IMG/VR virus record: IMGVR_UViG_3300020045_005677
Location: 64,413-128,412 of that record
Length of the DNA stretch: 64,000 nucleotides
Source: a virus
Reading direction: 5' to 3' (one strand)
Shown: piece by piece, positions 17,095 through 56,320 of the stretch
Layout of the letters: each line of letters begins with the position of its first letter
How positions within the stretch are numbered: position 1 is the stretch's first letter
Position numbers and translations under genes: made by a program
Notes under the pieces: model-generated
What the model was told of the DNA's origin: nothing
Database searches by the model: none
What the model saw: the letters and a program-made list of their open reading frames with translations, nothing else

Positions 17095-18030
17095 ATGAAT
17101 GTAATTAAATTTGGAACAGAGCCAATTAACTCTAAGCTAAACCTATTAGGAGATGATATAGGTTTTATAAAGCAATACGATTTTAGTACTGCTAATGTAG
17201 ATGATTCACATAGGATACATGCAGTAACTAGTGTAGCCAGTATATGTTATAACACTGAACATAAATCAATAGGTTCTAAGAGTCTATATGATAGACTAGG
17301 ATTAGAATCTGGTGGCGTGCCATCATCTAGTTTTGAATTTATTCCTGTATTGATTAGTGAATTTGAATTTGAACAAGAGACTAGAAAGTCTACTGTAATT
17401 AGTTTAATAGATTTAAAGATAGCTAAACATTCTATACTTGTTAAAAGTAAAGAAGGCTTAAGATATAGATTAACTAATTATAGAGCTGTAGTTCATGATT
17501 ATGAATTAACAAATGGTGAAGTAGACTTTAGAAAACATTACAATCATAAAGAGTATGAAATTAAAATCATTAGAGAAAACTTCTTTGTATTCTTAGCTAA
17601 GATAGATTTATCTACTAGAGCCCAACTAGTAAGACATAGAATGTTAAATTTTCAAGAGAGAAGTAGAAGATATGTATCTGGTAAGAAATTACCATTTGAT
17701 TTCTATTTAGAAGATAAAGTAAAAGCTACTAAACTTAAATTCTACGATATAGATTTAGAATCTCCATCTGTAGATAAAAACTTAAATACATTAAATGTAG
17801 ATGCAGAGAGATTAGCTAAAATGTCTGTAGACTTATATAATCAAGCATTAGAAGATGGTGTTAAACCTCAAGCTGCTAGAAGATTAATATTACAAGCTAT
17901 GTATACAGATATATGGATTGGATTTAACTCAGAGACATTAGCTGAATTCCTAGAGAGAAGAACTGAAGCAGATGCACAAATAGAGATTAGAAATTTAGCA
18001 TTAGGTATTCAAGAGCTAGTAGCTAGTTAG
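17095..18030 (+). CDS. thyX: FAD-dependent thymidylate synthase
   Basis: RHR-x7-SRR signature (QLVRHRMLNFQERSRRY), PQAARRLILQA, FLERRT..DAQIEIRNLA. Confidence 0.92.
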   Translation: MNVIKFGTEPINSKLNLLGDDIGFIKQYDFSTANVDDSHRIHAVTSVASICYNTEHKSIGSKSLYDRLGLESGGVPSSSFEFIPVLISEFEFEQETRKSTVISLIDLKIAKHSILVKSKEGLRYRLTNYRAVVHDYELTNGEVDFRKHYNHKEYEIKIIRENFFVFLAKIDLSTRAQLVRHRMLNFQERSRRYVSGKKLPFDFYLEDKVKATKLKFYDIDLESPSVDKNLNTLNVDAERLAKMSVDLYNQALEDGVKPQAARRLILQAMYTDIWIGFNSETLAEFLERRTEADAQIEIRNLALGIQELVAS

Positions 18031-18060: not shown

Positions 18061-18088
18061 TACTGTTATATAGAAATATATAACAGTA
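18061..18088 (+). terminator. Hairpin, 12-bp stem with GAAA loop
   Basis: After thyX, followed by TGTTTTATTTT. Confidence 0.7.
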
Positions 18089-18127
18089 TGTTTTATTTTG
18101 TCCATCTAAAATTAAATAGGAGTATAA

Positions 18128-18835
18128 ATGTTTAAATTGGATAATTATATTATTAGTCAGTCTATGATATTAATATCTAAAGACTTAGACAATAGCATTA
18201 AGAATATTATAACTTGTCAAGGTAGAAATAATGTTAGAGTATTTGGAGAAGCTAATAAACTATTTACAGTAGACTTAGCTAAGAAAGTAATAATTGAATC
18301 TTATAAAACATCTGATTTTAATAAGTATGTAATATTAGTAGGCACATCATTTAGAGAAGAAGCTCAGAATGCTCTTTTAAAGCTACTAGAAGAACAAACT
18401 AAAAATCATATATTCATTATCTTGGTAAACAATAATAATGTCTTATTGCCTACTGTATGTAGTCGTATGCCAGTATATTATATTTCTGAAATTAAGAAAG
18501 TTAAAAAAGATAAAGAAGTAATAGATTATTTAAATCTAAATGAAAAGATGATGATTAATTTATTATTAAAACATAAGAATATTAAAAAGGATGAAGTAAA
18601 AGAAACTATTAGTAGTATTATAATTGCAGATGGTATAAATAATAGACAGAGCTTTAATAGTAAAGTATTAAATAGTTTTACTACACTAATTAGATTATTA
18701 GATTTAAACTCTAGACCCTTAAATATCTTTACTGTATTTTTAACTAACTTAAATAAAGTAAACAAGAAGAGAAATAGTAATGAAAAAAATAATGATAATG
18801 TTGTTAATAGTATTTGGAATAGTAGTAAGTATTAA
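18128..18835 (+). CDS. holB: DNA polymerase III delta'-like clamp-loader subunit, short Campylobacterota type
   Basis: EAQNALLKLLEE, LLPTVCSRM (SRC/Arg-finger motif) and C-terminal LLDLNSRPLNI; no Zn module, like epsilonproteobacterial delta'. Confidence 0.8.
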   Translation: MFKLDNYIISQSMILISKDLDNSIKNIITCQGRNNVRVFGEANKLFTVDLAKKVIIESYKTSDFNKYVILVGTSFREEAQNALLKLLEEQTKNHIFIILVNNNNVLLPTVCSRMPVYYISEIKKVKKDKEVIDYLNLNEKMMINLLLKHKNIKKDEVKETISSIIIADGINNRQSFNSKVLNSFTTLIRLLDLNSRPLNIFTVFLTNLNKVNKKRNSNEKNNDNVVNSIWNSSKY

Positions 18836-18897: not shown

Positions 18898-18930
18898 TAC
18901 TAGACATAGTGTTAGAAGCTATGTCTAGTA
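18898..18930. terminator. Hairpin, 12-bp stem
   Basis: TACTAGACATAG/CTATGTCTAGTA. Confidence 0.65.
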
Positions 18931-19099: not shown

Positions 19100-19363
19100 A
19101 TGAATAGTAATAGTACTATAACTAAACATAATGATAACATACTTCTAATAGCAAGCGGATTAGTAAAAGAAGTATCCATCAAAGGTATAAGACTATATCA
19201 AAATTTTAATTTAGCTATAGCAGAAAAGGAACCAGTAGTGTTGAATTTAAAAGATTCAATTAGATTAGTAAATCAAATATCTGAAACAAGTAATATATCT
19301 GGAGACTTAAAAGATATTGTAGCTTATAACGATATTATTAATAGCTGGAAGTATCAATCATGA
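19100..19363 (+). CDS. Hypothetical protein
   Basis: 87 aa, AAGGA RBS. Confidence 0.6.
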   Translation: MNSNSTITKHNDNILLIASGLVKEVSIKGIRLYQNFNLAIAEKEPVVLNLKDSIRLVNQISETSNISGDLKDIVAYNDIINSWKYQS

Positions 19364-19683
19364 AAAAGTTTAGATTAACAAAGAGTGTTAAATCAGCATT
19401 AAGAATATATATTTTAGAAAATAAAAAATATAAAATGTGTACGATTAATGCTGTAAAAATTATTAATAAAAATGTAGTGGTTAATACTACTGTGCTTATT
19501 AAAGATGGTGACTTTGAAGAAATAGAAGTACCTATTAAAAGAAGAAAAGCTCTTAGAGTAGTAAGAAATTTTTTAGCTATACCAAAAGCGTCTTCTGACT
19601 ACTCTACAAGATATTATCCACCTGCTCCAATGCCAATTAAATCTTATGGCGAAACAGAGACTAGATTTTCTAGAGGGTTATAA
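19360..19683 (+). CDS. Basic small protein, tandem paralog 1 of 3 (MKKxxLT family)
   Basis: MKKFRLTK...IKRRKALRVVR. Confidence 0.65.
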   Translation: MKKFRLTKSVKSALRIYILENKKYKMCTINAVKIINKNVVVNTTVLIKDGDFEEIEVPIKRRKALRVVRNFLAIPKASSDYSTRYYPPAPMPIKSYGETETRFSRGL

Positions 19684-20028
19684 ATGAAAAAACTTAAATT
19701 AACTTTATCTATGCAATTTGCTATTGAAAATTATTTAAAAAATAAAGATGAGATATCTGGAAGAGTATTATGTCGTAGCTTAAAGCTAGCCAGAGGTAAT
19801 ATTATTATGGAAGTTGATATTATTAAAGGTGAAATAATAAATGGTATGCCACGAATAGTTAAAGATTACACTCTCTATATACCAATTAAAAGAAGAAAGC
19901 TATTAAGGCTATCTAGAAAATGGAAAAGAATACTTATGGCTAATAGAGAGAGACTCCGTAACAGTTTACTTGGTGGTGATTTTGATGGAGATTGGAATTG
20001 TGATGGAGACAACTTCTCTTTAGTTTAA
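19684..20028 (+). CDS. Basic small protein, tandem paralog 2 of 3
   Basis: MKKLKLTL...IKRRKLLRLSRKW. Confidence 0.65.
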   Translation: MKKLKLTLSMQFAIENYLKNKDEISGRVLCRSLKLARGNIIMEVDIIKGEIINGMPRIVKDYTLYIPIKRRKLLRLSRKWKRILMANRERLRNSLLGGDFDGDWNCDGDNFSLV

Positions 20029-20042
20029 GATAAAGGAAAAGT

Positions 20043-20282
20043 ATGAAAAAACTTAGATTAACAAAAGATGTTAAATTTGTAATTAAAAACTATCTCTCTA
20101 TTAATTATGCACTTATGATACCACTTGATGACAAAAAGTGTTTTATAATTGTACAAAAAAGAAATAATATAAAAGTATTCAGTAATGATGAATTACAGAT
20201 TGTACTAAATAGAAGAAAAGTATTAAGGCTAGTAAGAAAATGGAATAAGATATTCCATTGGGATAGATATTCTAAAAGATAG
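20043..20282 (+). CDS. Basic small protein, tandem paralog 3 of 3
   Basis: MKKLRLTK...LNRRKVLRLVRKW. Confidence 0.65.
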   Translation: MKKLRLTKDVKFVIKNYLSINYALMIPLDDKKCFIIVQKRNNIKVFSNDELQIVLNRRKVLRLVRKWNKIFHWDRYSKR

Positions 20283-20374
20283 TCTTTAGGTGCTATAATA
20301 AGCTAACAATAAATTAACCAAATTCCAAAGGTTTAATTTTAAAATAACTAAATTTAAAAGGAAGATATAAAAAT

Positions 20375-20656
20375 ATGGAAGAATTAAAAAATAAACCAGC
20401 AAAAACTATTTCTAAGTTTCAAAAAGCTAAGAAAGAAGTAAAAGCATTATACGAAGAGTTGAAGGCTAAAGATAGTTCTGTTAGAATATCTACAGTATAT
20501 AATAACTATGCTGTTGATAAGAAGTTTAAAACTTGGAATTCGTTGGTTGCTATATTAAAGCAAGAAGATTATAATAATGGTGTATGTTGGAATTGTGCAG
20601 ACTTTGTTCCTACTACTAGTAAGTATAGATGTCCAGAATGTGGAAAAGGTAAATAG
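20375..20656 (+). CDS. Small helical protein with C-terminal zinc ribbon
   Basis: KKFKTWNSLVA helical module plus CWNC-x11-CPEC. Confidence 0.6.
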   Translation: MEELKNKPAKTISKFQKAKKEVKALYEELKAKDSSVRISTVYNNYAVDKKFKTWNSLVAILKQEDYNNGVCWNCADFVPTTSKYRCPECGKGK

Positions 20657-20658
20657 TC

Positions 20659-21936
20659 ATGTCAGTACCTAGAAGAGTAAGAAGAGGAATTATTAAATCT
20701 TTAATTAAAGAAAAAGGTGGTGCTGGTTATTTCGATACTATATCGAATTTAGATAAAAAATCTAAGATTGGTACTAATCCTAATTATGCATTGGAGTTAA
20801 CTAATAATAAAATCTTTTCTAAATTTATTTTAGATAAAATAGAGTATGCTAAAAGCTCTGGTATTAAACATAATGAGACTACTTCTAAATTAGCAGAAGT
20901 ATTGTATAGATATAAAACTCATCTATTAAGAAGTAAAGAAGGTTTATCTATTGTTGAACTTAATTCAGATGGACATCTACAAGAGAGATTGGAAGTATTA
21001 TATAAGATATATGCAGATGATTTAGAATCTGAATTTATAGAAGAGAGTGAAAACGATAGAAAAGCAATTACAGCATTCTTATTTTCTTGTTTAGGTCTAT
21101 ATAAAATATGTGAATTTAATTTAGATAAAACACATATAGAATCTGGCAAGATAAAAGGTGGATACACTCAAGAGATTTATGATACTTTTAAAGTAATGAC
21201 AATAAACGATAGTACTGGTGGAGCTAGTATTATTAAAAAGATGTTAAAAGTAAATTGTGATTTTAATTCATTTAGTAACAACAAGGTATTAAAGAAAATT
21301 AATAATAAAATACTAGATGTAATTGTTCAATATGTACCTGAGTTGGAAGACACTATTATTAAGGATAGTTCAAATTGTATATCTAGAGCAATAGAGATAC
21401 TAAACACATTCCAATATACAGATAAACAAAATGTAGATAATGAAGTATTGTTTACATTAATCTATTATTATCATATTGCTAAAGCCATGAAAGATAAAGA
21501 ATGTGGTAAAGAGGAAATATTCTTAGTAGACATGATTGAATCATATGCTGTAGTATTAAATCAATTATTAGATAGTAGCTATAGACATTCTATATTGGTA
21601 GATAATATTACTACTAATCCATACATTAAATTAATTAGTGTATCATTATTAGGAGTACCAACTATTGAGAGAACTATTAGATTAGCTGTTAAGGGAAAAT
21701 TAGATAGAAGAGAGTATGATTCTAAATTATCTGTAAATAACTTTACTGCATTAGTAGATGAAGGAATAAGAGAGATTATTTCATTATTGAATAGTGAAGA
21801 TATAAATATTTTATTTAGAAATACTTATATAGAAGACATAAGTAATATTGTTAATTATCTAAATAGAAATAAAACAGAAAAGATAATAAGACAATACAAG
21901 TTGATTAAAGAGTACAAAGAACATATAGAGTATTAG
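20659..21936 (+). CDS. Hypothetical protein
   Basis: 425 aa helical protein with basic N-terminus PRRVRR. Confidence 0.65.
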   Translation: MSVPRRVRRGIIKSLIKEKGGAGYFDTISNLDKKSKIGTNPNYALELTNNKIFSKFILDKIEYAKSSGIKHNETTSKLAEVLYRYKTHLLRSKEGLSIVELNSDGHLQERLEVLYKIYADDLESEFIEESENDRKAITAFLFSCLGLYKICEFNLDKTHIESGKIKGGYTQEIYDTFKVMTINDSTGGASIIKKMLKVNCDFNSFSNNKVLKKINNKILDVIVQYVPELEDTIIKDSSNCISRAIEILNTFQYTDKQNVDNEVLFTLIYYYHIAKAMKDKECGKEEIFLVDMIESYAVVLNQLLDSSYRHSILVDNITTNPYIKLISVSLLGVPTIERTIRLAVKGKLDRREYDSKLSVNNFTALVDEGIREIISLLNSEDINILFRNTYIEDISNIVNYLNRNKTEKIIRQYKLIKEYKEHIEY

Positions 21937-26260: not shown

Positions 26261-27499
26261 ATGAAGTTTGCAAGAGATATAGAAGATATAGATGACGATG
26301 AAGAAGTACGTGCTCCTAGTAATAATGGTAAGCCAATATCTGCCAGTATGGCACTATCTGCTATTTTTAGAAAACAACCAACAGAACCAGGAATCTATGA
26401 AGTAAGTATTAAAAAGACAGCTAATGGTAATCAAGAGTTTTCTTTAAAAAGAACAGATGATTATTTTACTACTCCTGATAAATTATATGGCAGAATGCTA
26501 AAAGACTTTAAAAGAAGTTGGCATACTTTTAAATCGTTTTATGCTAAAGGTAATAACTTTAACCTAGGTGCAGTAGGTTATAAAGGAATGGGTAAAACAG
26601 AATTTCTATCATTACTATCTAACGAAGGTATTAAAGATGGTTTAATAATTGTAATGGTAGTAAATGTTAAAGCTAGTTTAGATTTAATAAAGTATTTAGA
26701 TTCTTTAGATAATCTAATATTAGTTCTAGATGAATATACTAAGAACTTTGATAAAGATTTACAAAAGAGGTCTTTAACTATGTTTAATAACCTATCTAAA
26801 AAAAGAAGAATGATTTGTATCTCTGATAATTACAAAGATGCTCTAAATGAATTCTTTCAAGATAGAACTGGTAGATTACATTATCTATTAGAATTTGAGA
26901 CCATAGATAATGAAGTAATTAAAGAGTATTGTCAAGACCATAATGTAAGAGAGTCTCTAATAGAAGAAATTTTAAAAGCTGCTAGAAAAGTACCTAACTT
27001 TTCATACGACTTTCTCAAGGGATTAGTATTAGAACATGAGCTATATCCAGATGATACATTAGAAGACTTATTATATTACTTAAATCTAAAAATACTTAAA
27101 CCTAGAGTAGCTTGTAAAGTAATTAAAGTAGAAAAAGTATTAGAGTTTGACCATGATAGAAAACCTGTTAAATTACAAGAGTATGATTATACTGTTAGAT
27201 TTAGTTATAGTAAAACCGAATTCGTAGATAAACAAAACTCTATCTGGATTAATATCAATGGTGTTAAGTATACAGAAGCAGAACAAGCAGAAAGAAATAA
27301 ACTGATTGAAGAAGCACAAAAGAAAAAATTACCATATCCATTTCCAGGTAGTACGGATAGAGAAAATACTAGTATAGACATCACTGATAGAATCCTGGAT
27401 AAATATACAGATAATAATGGTGATGAATATATAGAATTTATCAATGATAGAGACTTTTTAATTACAGTGGTGTTTGAAGATGGTATAAGTAAAAAATAA
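26261..27499 (+). CDS. AAA+ family ATPase
   Basis: Walker A GYKGMGKT, Walker B LVLDE, Arg-finger DRTGR. Confidence 0.85.
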   Translation: MKFARDIEDIDDDEEVRAPSNNGKPISASMALSAIFRKQPTEPGIYEVSIKKTANGNQEFSLKRTDDYFTTPDKLYGRMLKDFKRSWHTFKSFYAKGNNFNLGAVGYKGMGKTEFLSLLSNEGIKDGLIIVMVVNVKASLDLIKYLDSLDNLILVLDEYTKNFDKDLQKRSLTMFNNLSKKRRMICISDNYKDALNEFFQDRTGRLHYLLEFETIDNEVIKEYCQDHNVRESLIEEILKAARKVPNFSYDFLKGLVLEHELYPDDTLEDLLYYLNLKILKPRVACKVIKVEKVLEFDHDRKPVKLQEYDYTVRFSYSKTEFVDKQNSIWININGVKYTEAEQAERNKLIEEAQKKKLPYPFPGSTDRENTSIDITDRILDKYTDNNGDEYIEFINDRDFLITVVFEDGISKK

Positions 27500-39525: not shown

Positions 39526-41835
39526 ATGATTAATATTATAATACGAGAACAATCATTTAGAATAAAGTTAAATAATCAGTTATTGAGTAATAACAACAAT
39601 ATGGATAAGTACTATAATATTATAGAAAACTATACTAGTAAATTCTTGTCTTATACTTATGTATACAATAAACAAAAAGGTAGAAACGTACCTATAGTAG
39701 ATAAAAAATACTTTAGTAAGAAAACAACTGATGATGAAGTAGAATATATCTTTAACATTAGTTCATTTAGAGACTTCTTAATGCATTGTAGATTTAGGGG
39801 TATTGATATACAAGATACTAAAGAATTTAATATTGTTATTAAGCATAATACTCCTCTTAAAGCTAATCTAAAAGTAAGAGGTATGTATAAATTAAGAGAC
39901 TACCAAGATAAGTATGTAAATACTATAGTAGATAACAATATGAATAAAGCATTAATAGTATTACAGACTGGTAGAGGTAAAATGAATCCATTGGATACTA
40001 GAATTAGAATACCTGATGGATGGAAATTAATGGGAGATATTAGAGTAGGTGATAAAGTAATATCTAGAGATGGTACTACTACTATTGTAAATGGAGTATT
40101 TCCTCATGGATTACAAGATATCTATAAGATTACATTTGCTGATGGTAGAACTTCAGAATGTGGATTGGAACATCTATGGAATGTATATCATCCAGATTTT
40201 ATTAATGATAATAGTAAAGGCTTTAGAACTATAGATACTGCTACATTATTAGAAAGAATGAATAGTGATAAACTAGATAGTGATTTACACTTTATAGACC
40301 TAGTAGTATCTGAAAAGAATAGTCCTAAGAAATATGATATGTATCCTTTTAAGTTTGGTAAATCTATGGGTGGATATGATAGAATTCCACAAGAATATCT
40401 AAATGGTTCAACAGAGCAAAGATATAAGTTACTAGAAGGAATATTAGTTAATAGTTTTCCCGATAGAAATAGTGGATTAATTATCTATAGAAGCTTTAGT
40501 AAAGATTTAATATTAGATATACAATTATTAGTTAGGTCATTAGGTGGATTAGCATTAATGTATGAAGTTACTAGATTTAATAATGTAAAAACATTATATG
40601 GTCTAAGAATTGATAAGAGTAGGCTAGAAGGTAAACTTAAATTAAAGATTACTAATATAGAGCATATTGGTAAAAAAGAAGCACAGTGTATCTCTGTAGC
40701 TCATCCTGAGCAATTATATGTAGTAGATGATTATGTAGTAACACATAATACATTAATAGCATTAGCTACAGCTGCTAAAAGAAAATTAAAGACTGCCATA
40801 GTATTGCCAGGATATATAGAAAAATGGCAATCAGATGTGACTACAGTATTAGAATTAGAAGATAAAGATATCTACACTATTCAAGGAGCTGATAGTATAG
40901 ACTTAATTATTCGAAAGATACAATTAAATATACAGATGAAAGAAGTGGTATTTCTAATAGGTACTGCTACGTTTATGAGATATGTTAAAAAATATCAAGA
41001 AGATAGAAGTGGTGATATAATGCATCCAGCTGAAGTATTGGATTATTTAGGAATAGGTACAGTATTAGCAGATGAGATACATGAAAAGTTCTTTGCTACT
41101 TACACTACTATGTTATTTCTTAATCCTAAAACATTTGTAGGAATGACAGCTACATTTACTTCTAGTAATAATTATATTAAGAAATTCCAAGATATGATAT
41201 TTGAAGACAATACTAAATTAAACTTTATAGAAATTAATAAGTATATTAACACTATAGGTATTAACTATAAATTAGAAAATCCTAGGTCAGCTAAATATTT
41301 ATTAAGAGCTATGTATAATCATGACACTTATGAGAATAGTACCATATTGGGAAATAGAAGTAGATTAATTAATTTTATAGAGATGTTAAAATATTATATT
41401 ACTACTGAACATTTTGATGATGAGTTTAAACCTAAAGATAAATTAATTATATTTGTATCATCAATTAGGTTTGCTACATTATTAACTCTTAACTTATCTA
41501 GAGAATATAAACATCTAGATGTGCGTAGATATGTAGCTGATGATAGTTATGAAAATATATTAGAATCAGATATTATTATATCTACATTAGGTAGTGCTGG
41601 TACAGCATTGGACATACCTAATCTTAAAACAGTATTTAATACTGTAGTAGTAAAATCAGAAGTATCTAACAAGCAGAGTCATGGTAGATTAAGAGAAAGA
41701 AGTAATACTGTTAAGTATTTATATTTCTATAGTAAAAACATAGATAAGCATGTAACGTTTGAAAAAGTAAGAGAAGAGCAAATTAGACCATACAGTAAGA
41801 GTTATACATATCTTACATATCACAAGCAGATATAG
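39526..41835 (+). CDS. SF2 (DEAD/DEAH-like) helicase, phiKZ gp75-like, intein-containing
   Basis: Q motif LRDYQ, Walker A QTGRGK/T split by an intein, DEIH, GMTAT, motif VI QSHGRLRE. Confidence 0.9.
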   Translation: MINIIIREQSFRIKLNNQLLSNNNNMDKYYNIIENYTSKFLSYTYVYNKQKGRNVPIVDKKYFSKKTTDDEVEYIFNISSFRDFLMHCRFRGIDIQDTKEFNIVIKHNTPLKANLKVRGMYKLRDYQDKYVNTIVDNNMNKALIVLQTGRGKMNPLDTRIRIPDGWKLMGDIRVGDKVISRDGTTTIVNGVFPHGLQDIYKITFADGRTSECGLEHLWNVYHPDFINDNSKGFRTIDTATLLERMNSDKLDSDLHFIDLVVSEKNSPKKYDMYPFKFGKSMGGYDRIPQEYLNGSTEQRYKLLEGILVNSFPDRNSGLIIYRSFSKDLILDIQLLVRSLGGLALMYEVTRFNNVKTLYGLRIDKSRLEGKLKLKITNIEHIGKKEAQCISVAHPEQLYVVDDYVVTHNTLIALATAAKRKLKTAIVLPGYIEKWQSDVTTVLELEDKDIYTIQGADSIDLIIRKIQLNIQMKEVVFLIGTATFMRYVKKYQEDRSGDIMHPAEVLDYLGIGTVLADEIHEKFFATYTTMLFLNPKTFVGMTATFTSSNNYIKKFQDMIFEDNTKLNFIEINKYINTIGINYKLENPRSAKYLLRAMYNHDTYENSTILGNRSRLINFIEMLKYYITTEHFDDEFKPKDKLIIFVSSIRFATLLTLNLSREYKHLDVRRYVADDSYENILESDIIISTLGSAGTALDIPNLKTVFNTVVVKSEVSNKQSHGRLRERSNTVKYLYFYSKNIDKHVTFEKVREEQIRPYSKSYTYLTYHKQI
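39982..40749 (+). mobile_element. 256-aa class 3 intein with degenerate LAGLIDADG endonuclease remnant
   Basis: Inserted between K and T of the P-loop; starts MNPLDT; block B EHLW, block F EAQCISV, ends VVTHN/T (W-C-T triplet). Confidence 0.9.
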
Positions 41836-47042: not shown

Positions 47043-48641
47043 TTAATTAAACTCTAATATTCCTAGTAAGCCTTTAATCTCATTATTTATTTCTTTCTCA
47101 CTATTTGTATCCATACTCTCTTCTTCACCTATATCATCTGGTATAGGTTCTCCATTAGTAGGAAATGGTAATATCATAACTTTATCTTCAGACTTCATTA
47201 CTTTACTACCTTTATGTTTTCCTTTACCTACGGCTAAATAATCTTTACCATTCATACTGTATTTATAGGAGTACATTTCTAAATCCATCTCTTGAATTAG
47301 TTTTTTACTACCATCGTAAAATCCTTTACTCATTACCTTGTTTAAAAATACATCTCCAGTTAAATTTTCTCTAGCTATCGTTTGTGCATCAGGAGATAAT
47401 TGATGAGCACTAATAAATGAACATTTTCTTTTAGCAAAAAAGTTTCTTACTCTTCTAAATAAATCTCTTAAGTCACTACCCATTACTCCATTAGATACAC
47501 AACCTACAGTAGGAATTAATGATAAGTAATCTAGTATTACAGATTGTAATTCATATCCAGCTTTTTCATAAGTCTCTATTAGAGTAAAGAATGATTGAAA
47601 ACTCCAATCACTAGGGTCAACTCTAATAAATTTAACTTTAAATCCAGTAGCTTGTAATCTATCTTTTACATATGCTGCCATCTCTTCTTTAGTTACACTA
47701 TTTAAATCAGCTTTTACTTTATTATCAGTTAGATACATTTGTCTATATAAGAATTCGAATAATATATCTAAATCATCTTCTAAAGATACATATAATAATA
47801 ATGGTATTTTAGTAGGGTCAGTTAGTACTGGTTTATTATATCTAGCTATACCTACTAATGATGTAGCTAACCATCCTGACTTATAACTATGTGCTAAAGC
47901 ATTCCATATTACAAACTCTGGATTTTTATATCCACCAGTAGTTAAAAAGTTAATAGCTTGTATACCTATTTTAAATTTAAAGTTTTCAGCTTCATTAGTT
48001 TCTTTTACAGTTTGAAATATATTAGCTACATTTGTTAGATTGTCTAAGTCTATTTCATTTACAATAGCTAAATCTGTTTTCTGAATACTTTTCTTTAATC
48101 TGGTAGCATCTTCTATTAACTTATCTAATAACTCATCAGCAGTTATTCCATTCTTTAATTTCTTATCTATATCGAACGTATACTCTTGTCCTAGCTTTCT
48201 AATATTAATTAAATGTAATATTCTATTTAACTCAGACTCTAATGCTTTAATTACTAATTCATTTTCATTGTCAGTCATCTCTTTAAATATATCAATAGCT
48301 ATATCTTTTCTTACACTAGTTTTCATTATGTCATTAATGTTTTGTTCTAGCACTTCTTTATTAATAGTTTCTTCATCTAGGTAATTTAAAACTAAATCTC
48401 TAATCTTTTCAGTAGCTTCACTTTCTCCACCTTCTACATTAAAACTATCTAATGGTTTATATACGGCTAATACTTTTTTAATAGTTTTAATAATATTTGT
48501 TTTATCTATATATCTATTATTATTAATCTGTTCATTATTTTTTTGTTGTATATTTAATCTATATAGTATTTGTAGTATCTTTAAAAATGTACTTAGTCTG
48601 CTCTTGTTGCTAGTTGTGCTAGTAGAAAAATCTATTGACAT
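47043..48641 (-). CDS. dnaB: DnaB-like replicative helicase (phiKZ gp118-like)
   Basis: Walker A variant ALAHSYKS, YVSLED, ILDYL, SAHQLS, GKHKG; divergent from gp119-like/MCP as in phiKZ. Confidence 0.85.
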   Translation of the reverse strand: MSIDFSTSTTSNKSRLSTFLKILQILYRLNIQQKNNEQINNNRYIDKTNIIKTIKKVLAVYKPLDSFNVEGGESEATEKIRDLVLNYLDEETINKEVLEQNINDIMKTSVRKDIAIDIFKEMTDNENELVIKALESELNRILHLINIRKLGQEYTFDIDKKLKNGITADELLDKLIEDATRLKKSIQKTDLAIVNEIDLDNLTNVANIFQTVKETNEAENFKFKIGIQAINFLTTGGYKNPEFVIWNALAHSYKSGWLATSLVGIARYNKPVLTDPTKIPLLLYVSLEDDLDILFEFLYRQMYLTDNKVKADLNSVTKEEMAAYVKDRLQATGFKVKFIRVDPSDWSFQSFFTLIETYEKAGYELQSVILDYLSLIPTVGCVSNGVMGSDLRDLFRRVRNFFAKRKCSFISAHQLSPDAQTIARENLTGDVFLNKVMSKGFYDGSKKLIQEMDLEMYSYKYSMNGKDYLAVGKGKHKGSKVMKSEDKVMILPFPTNGEPIPDDIGEEESMDTNSEKEINNEIKGLLGILEFN

Positions 48642-54598: not shown

Positions 54599-56320
54599 AT
54601 GCAGAATAATATATTCAAATCTATGGTGTTTGATACTATAGAAAAGTGGAATCCAGATGTAATGGGTGTACTGTCTACTAAAATGGTACCTGGTGTATTA
54701 CCATATTTAGATAAGATAATAACAAGTGCAATGTTATCCTTAAATAAAGGAATAGACTTAAGATATGAGGGTTATAAAGCATTAACTCCTGACGAGGAAT
54801 ATAATGTAGTTAGTGCTGGTGGTAAAAAGAGAATGGCTTTTGACTTTGGTAGAAGTGATGTGGCTATGACTAAGTTAATGTTTAGTTTCGAAGGAGAGAC
54901 TGTACCAGCTAGAAATCTATATATCCCATTTGTAGATGAAAATGGTATAATGCATATATCTGATACTAAATACCAATGTATTCCAGTATTATCAGATACA
55001 ATTGTATCTCCTACTTCTAAAGATATTTTTACTAGATTGCTTAGAGATAAAGTAACTTTTAAAAGAGAAGCTAGAAACATAATGTTTAATGGTAGAATAT
55101 TAAATAGTGAATTAATATATAAAGACCTATATAGAACAAACAATAGAGTAATTACAGATAATCTAGGTAAGATAGTAACTTCATCTCCTTTATATCTATT
55201 TGCTAGATATGGCTTTATAGAAACATTTACTACATATGCTGAAACTAAACCAATCATTAAGATAGGAGACTATAATAAAAATGATTATTTAGAGTATGAT
55301 GAATATACTACTAAAGGAGAAAAACCATGGTCTCTTAAAAATGATAACTATAAGCCTCATGATGTTAAAGTATTAATCCATAAAGATTTTTCTACAAATT
55401 ATGTAATACAAACATTTGTTACTGGATTTATATATACTCTAGATGTATTTCCAGAATATGCTAATGAACTAGTAGATATTATTGAATCTGATAATGTAGC
55501 TGATGAGATTAATTACTGGCGAATATTAATGGGAAAAATAATATTTAAAAATAGTTATAGTACAGAGAGAGGACTAGCTGATGTTAATAACCACTTTAAT
55601 TCATTAGAGTCGTATATTGACCCAATAGTAAAAGAGAAGCTACAAGAGAATGAATTATACATTAATACATTCTTCGACTTAATAGCATATGTATGTAAAG
55701 TATTTAAAGATATGACTACTAACTATAAGATAATATCTGCAGATGTTAGAAATAGATATGTAGATATACTCTATTATATTTTATACGATATATTCGAAGC
55801 ATTAATTAGAAGTCTATTTGAATTAAACAAAAAGAAAGATAGAAAGATTACTATTACTAAAGAAGTAGTAACCAAAGTGTTTGACTTAAAGTTTAGTAGT
55901 AGAAAGATATTTAATTTAAATAGTAAAGGTAGTTTAAATATTGCTTTAGTATTAGCAGAGAATGTATCTGATAACAAAATGAAGTTAGCTCAGAATTGTG
56001 AACTACAAGAAAATGGTAAAGGTGTAAATAGAGCCCCTAGAGTAAAGCATGGCGGTAATAATACTCATGCTACTGCTACTGGTGCAGTATTGGGTAGTAT
56101 TTATGGAGTAACTAAATCTACTCTAGATGAGAGGATGAAGATTAATCCATTCGTAAAACTATCTAGAACAGGTAGAATTCAATTAGACCCTAGAAAAGTA
56201 GAATATGTAAAGATAATGGATGGATTATTAAATGGTAATAACTTATTTAATGCTAAAGATATTAATCAATTATTTATAGCTGCTGCAGAAGAAGAGAAGA
56301 TTGAATTTAAAGATATTTAA
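54599..56320 (+). CDS. rpoB: Non-virion RNA polymerase beta subunit, N-terminal part (phiKZ gp123-like)
   Basis: LYIPFVDENGIMHISDTKYQCIPVLSD, FTRLLRDKVTF, SLESYID; 573 aa downstream of MCP as in phiKZ. Confidence 0.8.
   Translation: MQNNIFKSMVFDTIEKWNPDVMGVLSTKMVPGVLPYLDKIITSAMLSLNKGIDLRYEGYKALTPDEEYNVVSAGGKKRMAFDFGRSDVAMTKLMFSFEGETVPARNLYIPFVDENGIMHISDTKYQCIPVLSDTIVSPTSKDIFTRLLRDKVTFKREARNIMFNGRILNSELIYKDLYRTNNRVITDNLGKIVTSSPLYLFARYGFIETFTTYAETKPIIKIGDYNKNDYLEYDEYTTKGEKPWSLKNDNYKPHDVKVLIHKDFSTNYVIQTFVTGFIYTLDVFPEYANELVDIIESDNVADEINYWRILMGKIIFKNSYSTERGLADVNNHFNSLESYIDPIVKEKLQENELYINTFFDLIAYVCKVFKDMTTNYKIISADVRNRYVDILYYILYDIFEALIRSLFELNKKKDRKITITKEVVTKVFDLKFSSRKIFNLNSKGSLNIALVLAENVSDNKMKLAQNCELQENGKGVNRAPRVKHGGNNTHATATGAVLGSIYGVTKSTLDERMKINPFVKLSRTGRIQLDPRKVEYVKIMDGLLNGNNLFNAKDINQLFIAAAEEEKIEFKDI

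Follow-up and report, generated by a model that had tools for sequence, protein, structure and literature searches.

The locus described here raises the question of why a phage related to phiKZ should carry a lone, host-type subunit of the bacterial clamp loader. Chimalliviruses replicate inside a protein shell, using a split B-family DNA polymerase together with the monomeric, clamp-derived Rhc, and a ring clamp is unneeded (PMC13648687). No sliding clamp or clamp loader has been identified in these phages (PMC13648687, PMC7824862), and the same holds for their primase (PMC13648687). Rhc (phiKZ gp155), the chimallivirus solution to processivity, is a DNA polymerase subunit that works without a loader, as it forms no ring around DNA (PMC13648687), and a δ′ subunit in such a phage is therefore unexpected. 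Nucleus-forming phages are thought to be self-contained and clamp-loader-free in replication, and a conserved host-type δ′ in one lineage would leave two options. Either these phages may still engage the host replisome, with δ′ as a tool for takeover or shut-off or as the supply of a limiting or unstable subunit, or the loader subunit would have acquired a different function.

The gene, a holB homologue encoding a short δ′, is located in a window of 64,000 nucleotides (the whole stretch of DNA that was analysed; coordinates refer to it unless stated otherwise). This window covers the second half of a linear IMG/VR record of 128,412 bp, which CheckV estimates to be about 48% complete. A sequence-only reading had described the protein as a captured, host-type δ′ and had proposed, as its main idea, a decoy directed against the host replisome.

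The carrier phage and the surroundings of holB

Judged by its genes, the record is a fragment of a very divergent, uncultured phiKZ-like phage. It encodes a tail sheath protein (phrog_3242, E = 1e-150), a major head protein (phrog_3231) that is 20–25% identical to those of 122 phiKZ-like phages, and at least five split RNA-polymerase subunits, including a homologue of phiKZ gp123. Genes for a DnaB-like replicative helicase of the phiKZ-like type (Table 1), for a homologue of Rhc (positions 19309–20886 of the genome record), and for UvsX and SbcCD are also present. The product of phiKZ gp123, which we take to be a subunit of the non-virion RNA polymerase, is annotated merely as 'polymerase', and its counterpart in the window was rejected as a candidate DNA polymerase because it is the gp123 homologue. 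A proposed chimallin gene has no phmmer match in the PDB and no tblastn match, and aligns weakly but colinearly with PF25677 (E = 0.05). Formation of a nucleus by the carrier phage is suggested by its phiKZ-like core, namely the RNA-polymerase subunits, capsid, sheath, Rhc and DnaB-like helicase. The window also encodes a large P-loop protein with mixed PHROG matches (DnaC-like loader, DNA helicase, primase and terminase), which could be a replication protein of the helicase–primase type, in a family without a known primase.

Table 1 Features of the window discussed in the text
Feature	Position	Strand	Details
thyX (FAD-dependent thymidylate synthase, ThyX)	17095..18030	+	311 aa, long form; directly upstream of holB
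Hairpin	18062..18087	+	ACTGTTATATA-GAAA-TATATAACAGT; perfect 11-bp AT-rich stem; direct sequence reading
Shine-Dalgarno AGGAG	18118..18122	+	5 nt upstream of the holB ATG; direct sequence reading
Phage holB-like gene (short δ′)	18128..18835	+	235 aa; intact ORF
Hairpin	18898..18930	+	13-bp stem; 63 nt past the holB stop codon
Three tandem small ORFs	19360..20282	+	107, 114 and 79 aa; 3′ of holB
AAA ATPase	26261..27499	+	412 aa; Walker A and B; phrog_2376, E = 1e-45; weak phrog_168
P-loop protein	39526..41835	+	769 aa
DnaB-like replicative helicase, phiKZ-like type	47043..48641	-	phrog_3213, E = 5e-103
phiKZ gp123 homologue ('polymerase')	54599..56320		phrog_2943

The neighbouring ThyX is the second host-like gene product of the locus, sharing 46% identity with ThyX of Aliarcobacter cryaerophilus across 96% of its length. 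Capture of thyX and holB as one host block was ruled out, as thyX adjoins holB in none of 35 bacterial loci. On the other side of holB, the three tandem small ORFs are paralogous (28–33% identical), with a common MKK(F/L)(R/K)LT start and a PIKRRKxLRLxRKW motif.

The ribosome-binding site of holB is strong. The hairpin between thyX and holB is followed by a T-rich run and is possibly a terminator or attenuator; it was missing from the consensus terminator scan because its stem has few G–C pairs. A scan for terminator-like sites, which returned two sites against 0.3 expected, is the basis for the hairpin downstream of holB, which likely marks the end of the thyX-holB transcription unit. The composition of holB is that of its phage at third codon positions (GC3 16.1%, phage mean 15.6 ± 2.7). 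Its total GC content of 22.3% is about 2 SD under the phage gene mean of 27.9%, because the protein is unusually rich in Asn, Lys and Ile (FYMINK residues 46%).

Family, motifs and fold of the phage δ′

The phage δ′ aligns colinearly and in full length with the NCBIfam model of short δ′ (NF006296, PRK08485, 206 positions; E = 8e-34), residues 12–212 corresponding to model positions 5–203. The score of 117.3 bits is below the curated equivalog cutoff of 140 bits, and by this NCBI threshold the sequence is classed as a homologue, not an equivalog. In addition, residues 49–121 match Pfam PF13177 (DNA_pol3_delta2; E = 2.5e-11) with 44.3 bits, above the gathering cutoff of 27, and in this alignment the N-terminal 48 residues stand for profile positions 1–87. 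The match to PHROG 5846, 'clamp loader of DNA polymerase' (380 positions), is partial, with residues 48–163 on positions 77–183 (E = 2.6e-11). A tblastn search with the phage δ′ against 50,697 phage records gave no match.

The translation contains no Walker A motif (GxxxxGK[ST]), as in a non-catalytic stator, and two Cys only, hence no Zn module. In an alignment of 52 bacterial short δ′ and seven representatives of the phage δ′ clade described below, 14 positions with a conservation of at least 90% among the bacterial proteins are retained in all seven representatives (F46, E57, K66, N81, L83, L84, K85, E88, T109, S112, R113, L181, L190 and N194). The Ser–Arg finger (SRC-type) and the preceding LLPT sensor strand are found in the segment LLPTVCSRM, of which T109, S112 and R113 are invariant in the 52 bacterial and 7 clade sequences. 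Close to the C-terminus, the segment LLDLNSRPLNI (residues 190–200) fits the bacterial helix consensus LLxLNSRPxNV, and L190 and N194 are retained throughout the clade.

Residues 81–91 read NALLKLLEEQT, so that the bacterial EEPP is changed to EEQT. Position 91 is Pro in 52/52 bacterial short δ′ and position 90 in 96% of them, and the two-proline form NALLKxLEEPP is absent from the phage protein. Q-T at positions 90–91 is limited to the phage δ′ and its 92% relative, the loss of both prolines being private to a sub-lineage; the clade member P0030 retains EEPP, and three other members retain the second Pro. Moreover, the phage δ′ has a C-terminal extension of about 25 residues that is missing from bacterial homologues. 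The EEPP-to-EEQT change, the kept SR Arg finger and the LLDLNSRPLNI segment, pointed out earlier from the sequence, are all seen in these alignments.

The AlphaFold2 model of the phage δ′, built with 103 homologues (pLDDT 90.9), is composed of a five-stranded RecA-like domain (residues 1–120) followed by four lid/collar-like helices (residues 139–232). The model is intact around residues 88–100 (pLDDT 94–98), showing no structural disruption at the EEQT region. Using Foldseek and VIA-align, clamp-loader subunits alone were found among the matches listed (best 50 of 98, E ≤ 0.001), with Z scores of 12–14.7. Among them are TM0771 (2GNO, Z 14.7), RFC small subunits (Z 13–14) and E. coli δ′ (1A5T, Z 12.8), the last aligning model residues 3–212 with chain residues 10–323; the rmsd of these matches is high (8–10 Å), as expected because the domain orientations differ. 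We are confident from the model that the phage δ′ has the fold of a clamp-loader subunit, with RecA-like domain, lid and collar helices, and the predicted structure is that of an intact, ATPase-dead protein.

The short δ′ of Campylobacterota (for example Halarcobacter ebronensis WP_424686969.1 and Arcobacter sp. FWKO B WP_200414866.1) belong to the same length class and have the same architecture, at 33–39% identity. They share with the phage protein the lack of P-loop and Zn module, the NALLKxLEE helix, the LLPTxxSR Arg finger and the C-terminal LLxLNSRP. In contrast to them, the phage copy is phage-encoded, reads EEQT, bears the ~25 extra C-terminal residues, belongs to a long-stemmed clade and scores under the equivalog cutoff. 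The same clamp-loader fold is found in E. coli δ′ (1A5T; γ complex 1JR3, 3GLI and 8VAL) and Thermotoga TM0771 (2GNO), to which the region of the SRC-type Arg finger aligns with profile E values of 1.6e-7 to 1.6e-8. Compared with these two, however, the phage protein is ~100 residues shorter, lacks the N-terminal P-loop/Zn region and has its lid and collar compressed into four helices.

Phage-borne DnaX/δ′-like genes are already known in other jumbo phages. They occur in 157 INPHARED records, most of them from Erwinia, Dickeya and Pseudomonas jumbo phages outside the chimallivirus group. PHROG 5846 comprises such homologues of loader small subunits from jumbo phages (Erwinia Y3-type, Dickeya JA29/JA11 and P. 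putida SKa-4), and likewise from Nodularia phages and Clostridium phiCTP1, often without a recognisable clamp (PMC7824862). Iyer et al. had already pointed to jumbo phages that possess a loader yet lack a clamp (PMC7824862). Most of the PHROG 5846 genes are longer (profile of 380 positions; Dickeya JA29 model of 406 aa) and several are annotated as DnaX (γ/τ), whereas the protein of the carrier phage is an ATPase-dead short δ′ in a phiKZ-like phage. BFVD also includes models of phage proteins named 'DNA polymerase III delta', with 236–280 aa. Judged from these sequence comparisons, what is new is the minimal ATPase-dead Campylobacterota type of δ′, its phiKZ-like carrier, and its distinct, apparently viral clade. 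With its EEQT and its extra tail, the phage δ′ is a naturally occurring variant of the minimal Campylobacterota δ′, which has been little studied; its practical value is at present modest.

Origin and relatives of the phage δ′

An exhaustive HMMER search of 1.84 billion representatives returned one relative of the phage δ′ at 92% identity, next three clusters at 41–45% (216–219 aa), and then bacterial short δ′ at ≤40%. Short δ′ is present in 201/201 sampled Campylobacterota genomes, and a matching host machine therefore exists. All but one of these genomes have a single match, the best being 37–39% identical, and identity to any bacterial δ′ in this sample is ≤39%. The sole genome with two matches to the phage δ′ is G148, in which the second match could be DnaX or a second δ′-like gene.

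In an IQ-TREE phylogeny of 59 rows, with Halarcobacter ebronensis, Arcobacter sp. FWKO B, Campylobacter, Sulfurimonas and Helicobacter as named anchors, the phage δ′ and six metagenomic representatives form one separate clade (100/100) with a long stem of 0.87. This clade lies within a weakly supported group (80/91) together with a low-GC Arcobacteraceae clade. In AU tests, for which the groups were named after seeing the tree, union of the phage clade with Arcobacteraceae was not rejected (p = 0.16), whereas union with the Sulfurimonadaceae group was rejected (p = 0.017). By these sequences, the nearest named kin of the phage δ′ are Arcobacteraceae, which, together with the NF006296 match and the two Cys, agrees with the earlier assignment of the protein to the host-type, short, Zn-less δ′ of the Arcobacter-like kind. 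Through this gene, a phage group that has no cultured member gains a specific link to a host, namely Arcobacteraceae-like Campylobacterota, which can be put to the test.

Members of the phage δ′ clade are found on contigs of ≤50 kb only (P0030, 15.7 kb; P0202, 20.6 kb; P0207, 10.4 kb) and bacterial δ′ on megabase contigs, which suggests that the whole clade is viral; P0029, P0030, P0031 and P0003–5 are presumed to be phage-borne. IMG/VR was searched with the phage δ′, the clade alignment, the major capsid protein, P0031 and P0005, and gave no relatives. Metagenome and genome scans retrieved ordinary bacterial δ′/DnaX only, the generic NALLKxLEE pattern having swamped the matches. The 92% HolB relatives (P0002/P0179) lie on contigs of the same size as those carrying the 83% ThyX (48,990 bp) and the 86% AAA ATPase (50,124 bp), which indicates that the same related phages carry holB. 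In the comparison of the two related phages, conservation is highest for HolB, with 92% identity versus 83% for ThyX and 86% for the AAA ATPase.

An assembly chimera or a recent capture was ruled out by the phage-typical GC3 and the ≤39% identity to any bacterium. The gene lies in a phiKZ-like phage record and is not a single-copy chromosomal gene of a bacterium. The notion of a captured subunit holds as far as the host-type origin is concerned, but the capture was not a fresh one: the tree, the GC3 and the 92% relative point to an old, ameliorated and constrained acquisition.

Partners and role of the phage δ′

PF13177 was searched over the whole 128,412-bp record and matched the holB gene alone, and there is therefore no dnaX in the record. 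PF00712 (dnaN), PF06144 (holA), PF07733 (dnaE) and an Arcobacter HolA query had no match in this ~48% complete record; applied to Arcobacter-like genomes, the holA profile recovers their ~329-aa HolA with a weak score. The absence of dnaX, holA and dnaN, observed earlier for the window, thus extends to all 128 kb of the genome contained in the record. Homologues of phiKZ gp50 and gp82 (split DNA polymerase, DNAP-N/DNAP-C) and PF00136 likewise gave no match in the record. The DNA polymerase genes of the carrier phage probably sit in the missing half, which therefore holds replication genes and maybe a partner of δ′. The earlier statement that the phage replicates with its own family-B polymerase agrees with the literature on chimalliviruses and has its basis there, not in this DNA, since the polymerase genes are outside the record. 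In ten complete phiKZ-like genomes (phiKZ, RAY, Noxifer, RP12, AgentSmith, Eowyn, Xoo-sp14, EC001, Psa21 and RSF1), PF13177 had no match at E ≤ 0.1, and δ′ is not a shared chimallivirus core gene.

The AAA ATPase encoded in the window was considered as a DnaX-like partner and ruled out, as it falls into a generic AAA family of phages and lacks a PF13177 match. It is 23% identical to the 'ATPase' of phAPEC8-like phages and of phages infecting the Gram-positive Enterococcus, Bacillus and Staphylococcus, not of phiKZ-like ones, and its Atlas neighbours all belong to PF00004. Its metagenomic relatives, at 86% and ~40% identity, are on contigs of 50,124 and 78,505 bp, respectively.

Within the clamp loader, δ′ has no ATPase of its own and acts as the rigid stator of the pentamer, as the donor of an Arg finger to the DnaX ATP site and as a modulator of δ, roles that are established for the E. 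coli γ complex (PDB 1JR3, 3GLI and 8VAL). As the functional elements of δ′ and its C-terminal motif are kept and no DnaX-type ATPase of the phage was found, the simplest partner is the host DnaX3–δ, and the phage δ′ probably plugs into the host machine. We tentatively propose, with a probability of about 0.4, that it is a working replacement stator docking into the host DnaX–δ complex. We favour this over a pure poison because the clade as a whole retains every family position that is relevant to catalysis.

As a replacement stator, the δ′ would have been taken long ago by an ancestor of the phage lineage from an Arcobacteraceae-like host and retained since under purifying selection. It would most likely replace the host δ′ in the host DnaX3–δ clamp loader, docking via its conserved C-terminal LLxLNS helices and offering its Ser–Arg finger to the adjacent DnaX ATP site. 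The outcome would be a hybrid, still ATP-competent loader under phage control, which may sustain the loading of host β clamps, or direct loading to phage DNA or repair, during the shutdown of host expression. Given the homology and fold, the retained motifs, the location in a phage, the early acquisition and the constraint on the gene established above, we infer that the protein binds host DnaX/HolA and that its effect is help, not harm.

The full-length colinear NF006296 match, the confident clamp-loader fold, the 14 positions kept in 7/7 clade representatives and the well-supported old clade all argue for such a stator, as do the phage-like GC3 and the better conservation of HolB than of ThyX and the AAA ATPase in related phages. 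It is also consistent with the lack of dnaX, holA, dnaN and dnaE in the record, with 0/10 complete phiKZ-like genomes having PF13177, and with the short δ′ of 201/201 Campylobacterota, hence a matching host machine. It fits less well with the split PolB and Rhc of chimalliviruses, which need no ring clamp (PMC13648687), and with the Rhc homologue present here. The loss of the bacterially invariant P91 and the score under the equivalog cutoff also weigh against it; moreover, ~52% of the genome is unseen, and the other clade members are placed in phages by presumption.

The decoy, which was the main idea of the sequence-only reading, is one of several readings, possible but doubtful. The phage δ′ would out-compete host δ′ or sequester host δ/DnaX, leaving the loader stalled or mis-regulated, host chromosome replication halted and dNTPs freed for the phage. 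That the gene encodes one isolated subunit of an essential machine of five parts, in phages that do without a ring clamp (PMC13648687), would suit such a poison, and so would its position beside thyX, a dNTP-supply gene. The replaced PP of EEPP, invariant in bacteria, the ~25-residue tail missing in hosts and the loader-free replication style of the family speak for interference. As the sequence-only reading noted, gp8 of coliphage N4 acts against the clamp loader of its host and is a precedent for the loader as a target (Yano & Rothman-Denes 2011, cited in PMC7576135). N4 gp8 is a small, unrelated inhibitor that binds δ and, unlike the phage δ′, is not a homologue of a loader subunit. However, the Arg finger and the sensor Thr are present in every clade member over deep divergence, though a simple blocker would not need them, and together with the collar motif kept in 7/7 this is mildly against a mere poison. 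The loss of PP is confined to one sub-lineage, with EEPP kept in P0030 and the second Pro in three others, and the model is undisturbed around residues 88–100.

It is unlikely that the phage δ′ has a job internal to the phage, acting not in the cytoplasmic host loader but with Rhc, the DnaB-like helicase or the polymerase, or carrying parts of the host replisome into the phage nucleus. The long stem (0.87) and the ≤39% identity to bacterial δ′ would suit a change of partners, the carrier phage has Rhc and DnaB-like genes, and chimalliviruses are without an identified loader and primase (PMC13648687). On the other hand, the ten complete phiKZ-like genomes without δ′ belong to phages that replicate without it, the kept collar motif and Arg finger make sense only beside a DnaX-type ATPase, and no phage DnaX-like ATPase was found in the record. 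Slightly less likely still is the recruitment of δ′ into chimallivirus replication itself, either as an adaptor that takes the DnaX complex and β clamp of the host across the chimallin shell, or as a partner of Rhc or the DNA polymerase inside the nucleus. In that case, δ′ would be the first component of clamp-loader type in the replication of nucleus-forming phages.

Improbable to much the same degree as that recruitment is a complete phage-encoded clamp loader and clamp, whose other genes would lie in the unsequenced half. The record is ~48% complete and lacks even the DNA polymerase genes that would be expected, and other jumbo phages encode DnaX-like clamp-loader genes (the 157 INPHARED records). 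Such a gene is, however, absent from every chimallivirus examined (ten genomes; PMC13648687; PMC7824862), the replication genes that are present (Rhc, DnaB-like, UvsX and SbcCD) include no partner, and holB lies beside thyX, not in a replisome operon. Far less likely than any of these is a neutral passenger, or what is left of a host gene in decay, without any role: the score under the equivalog cutoff and the lost invariant Pro would agree with it, but the ORF is uninterrupted and preceded by a strong ribosome-binding site, the 92% identity to the relative is above that of two neighbouring genes, the fold is confident, and the clade is deep and diversified with its core motifs conserved.
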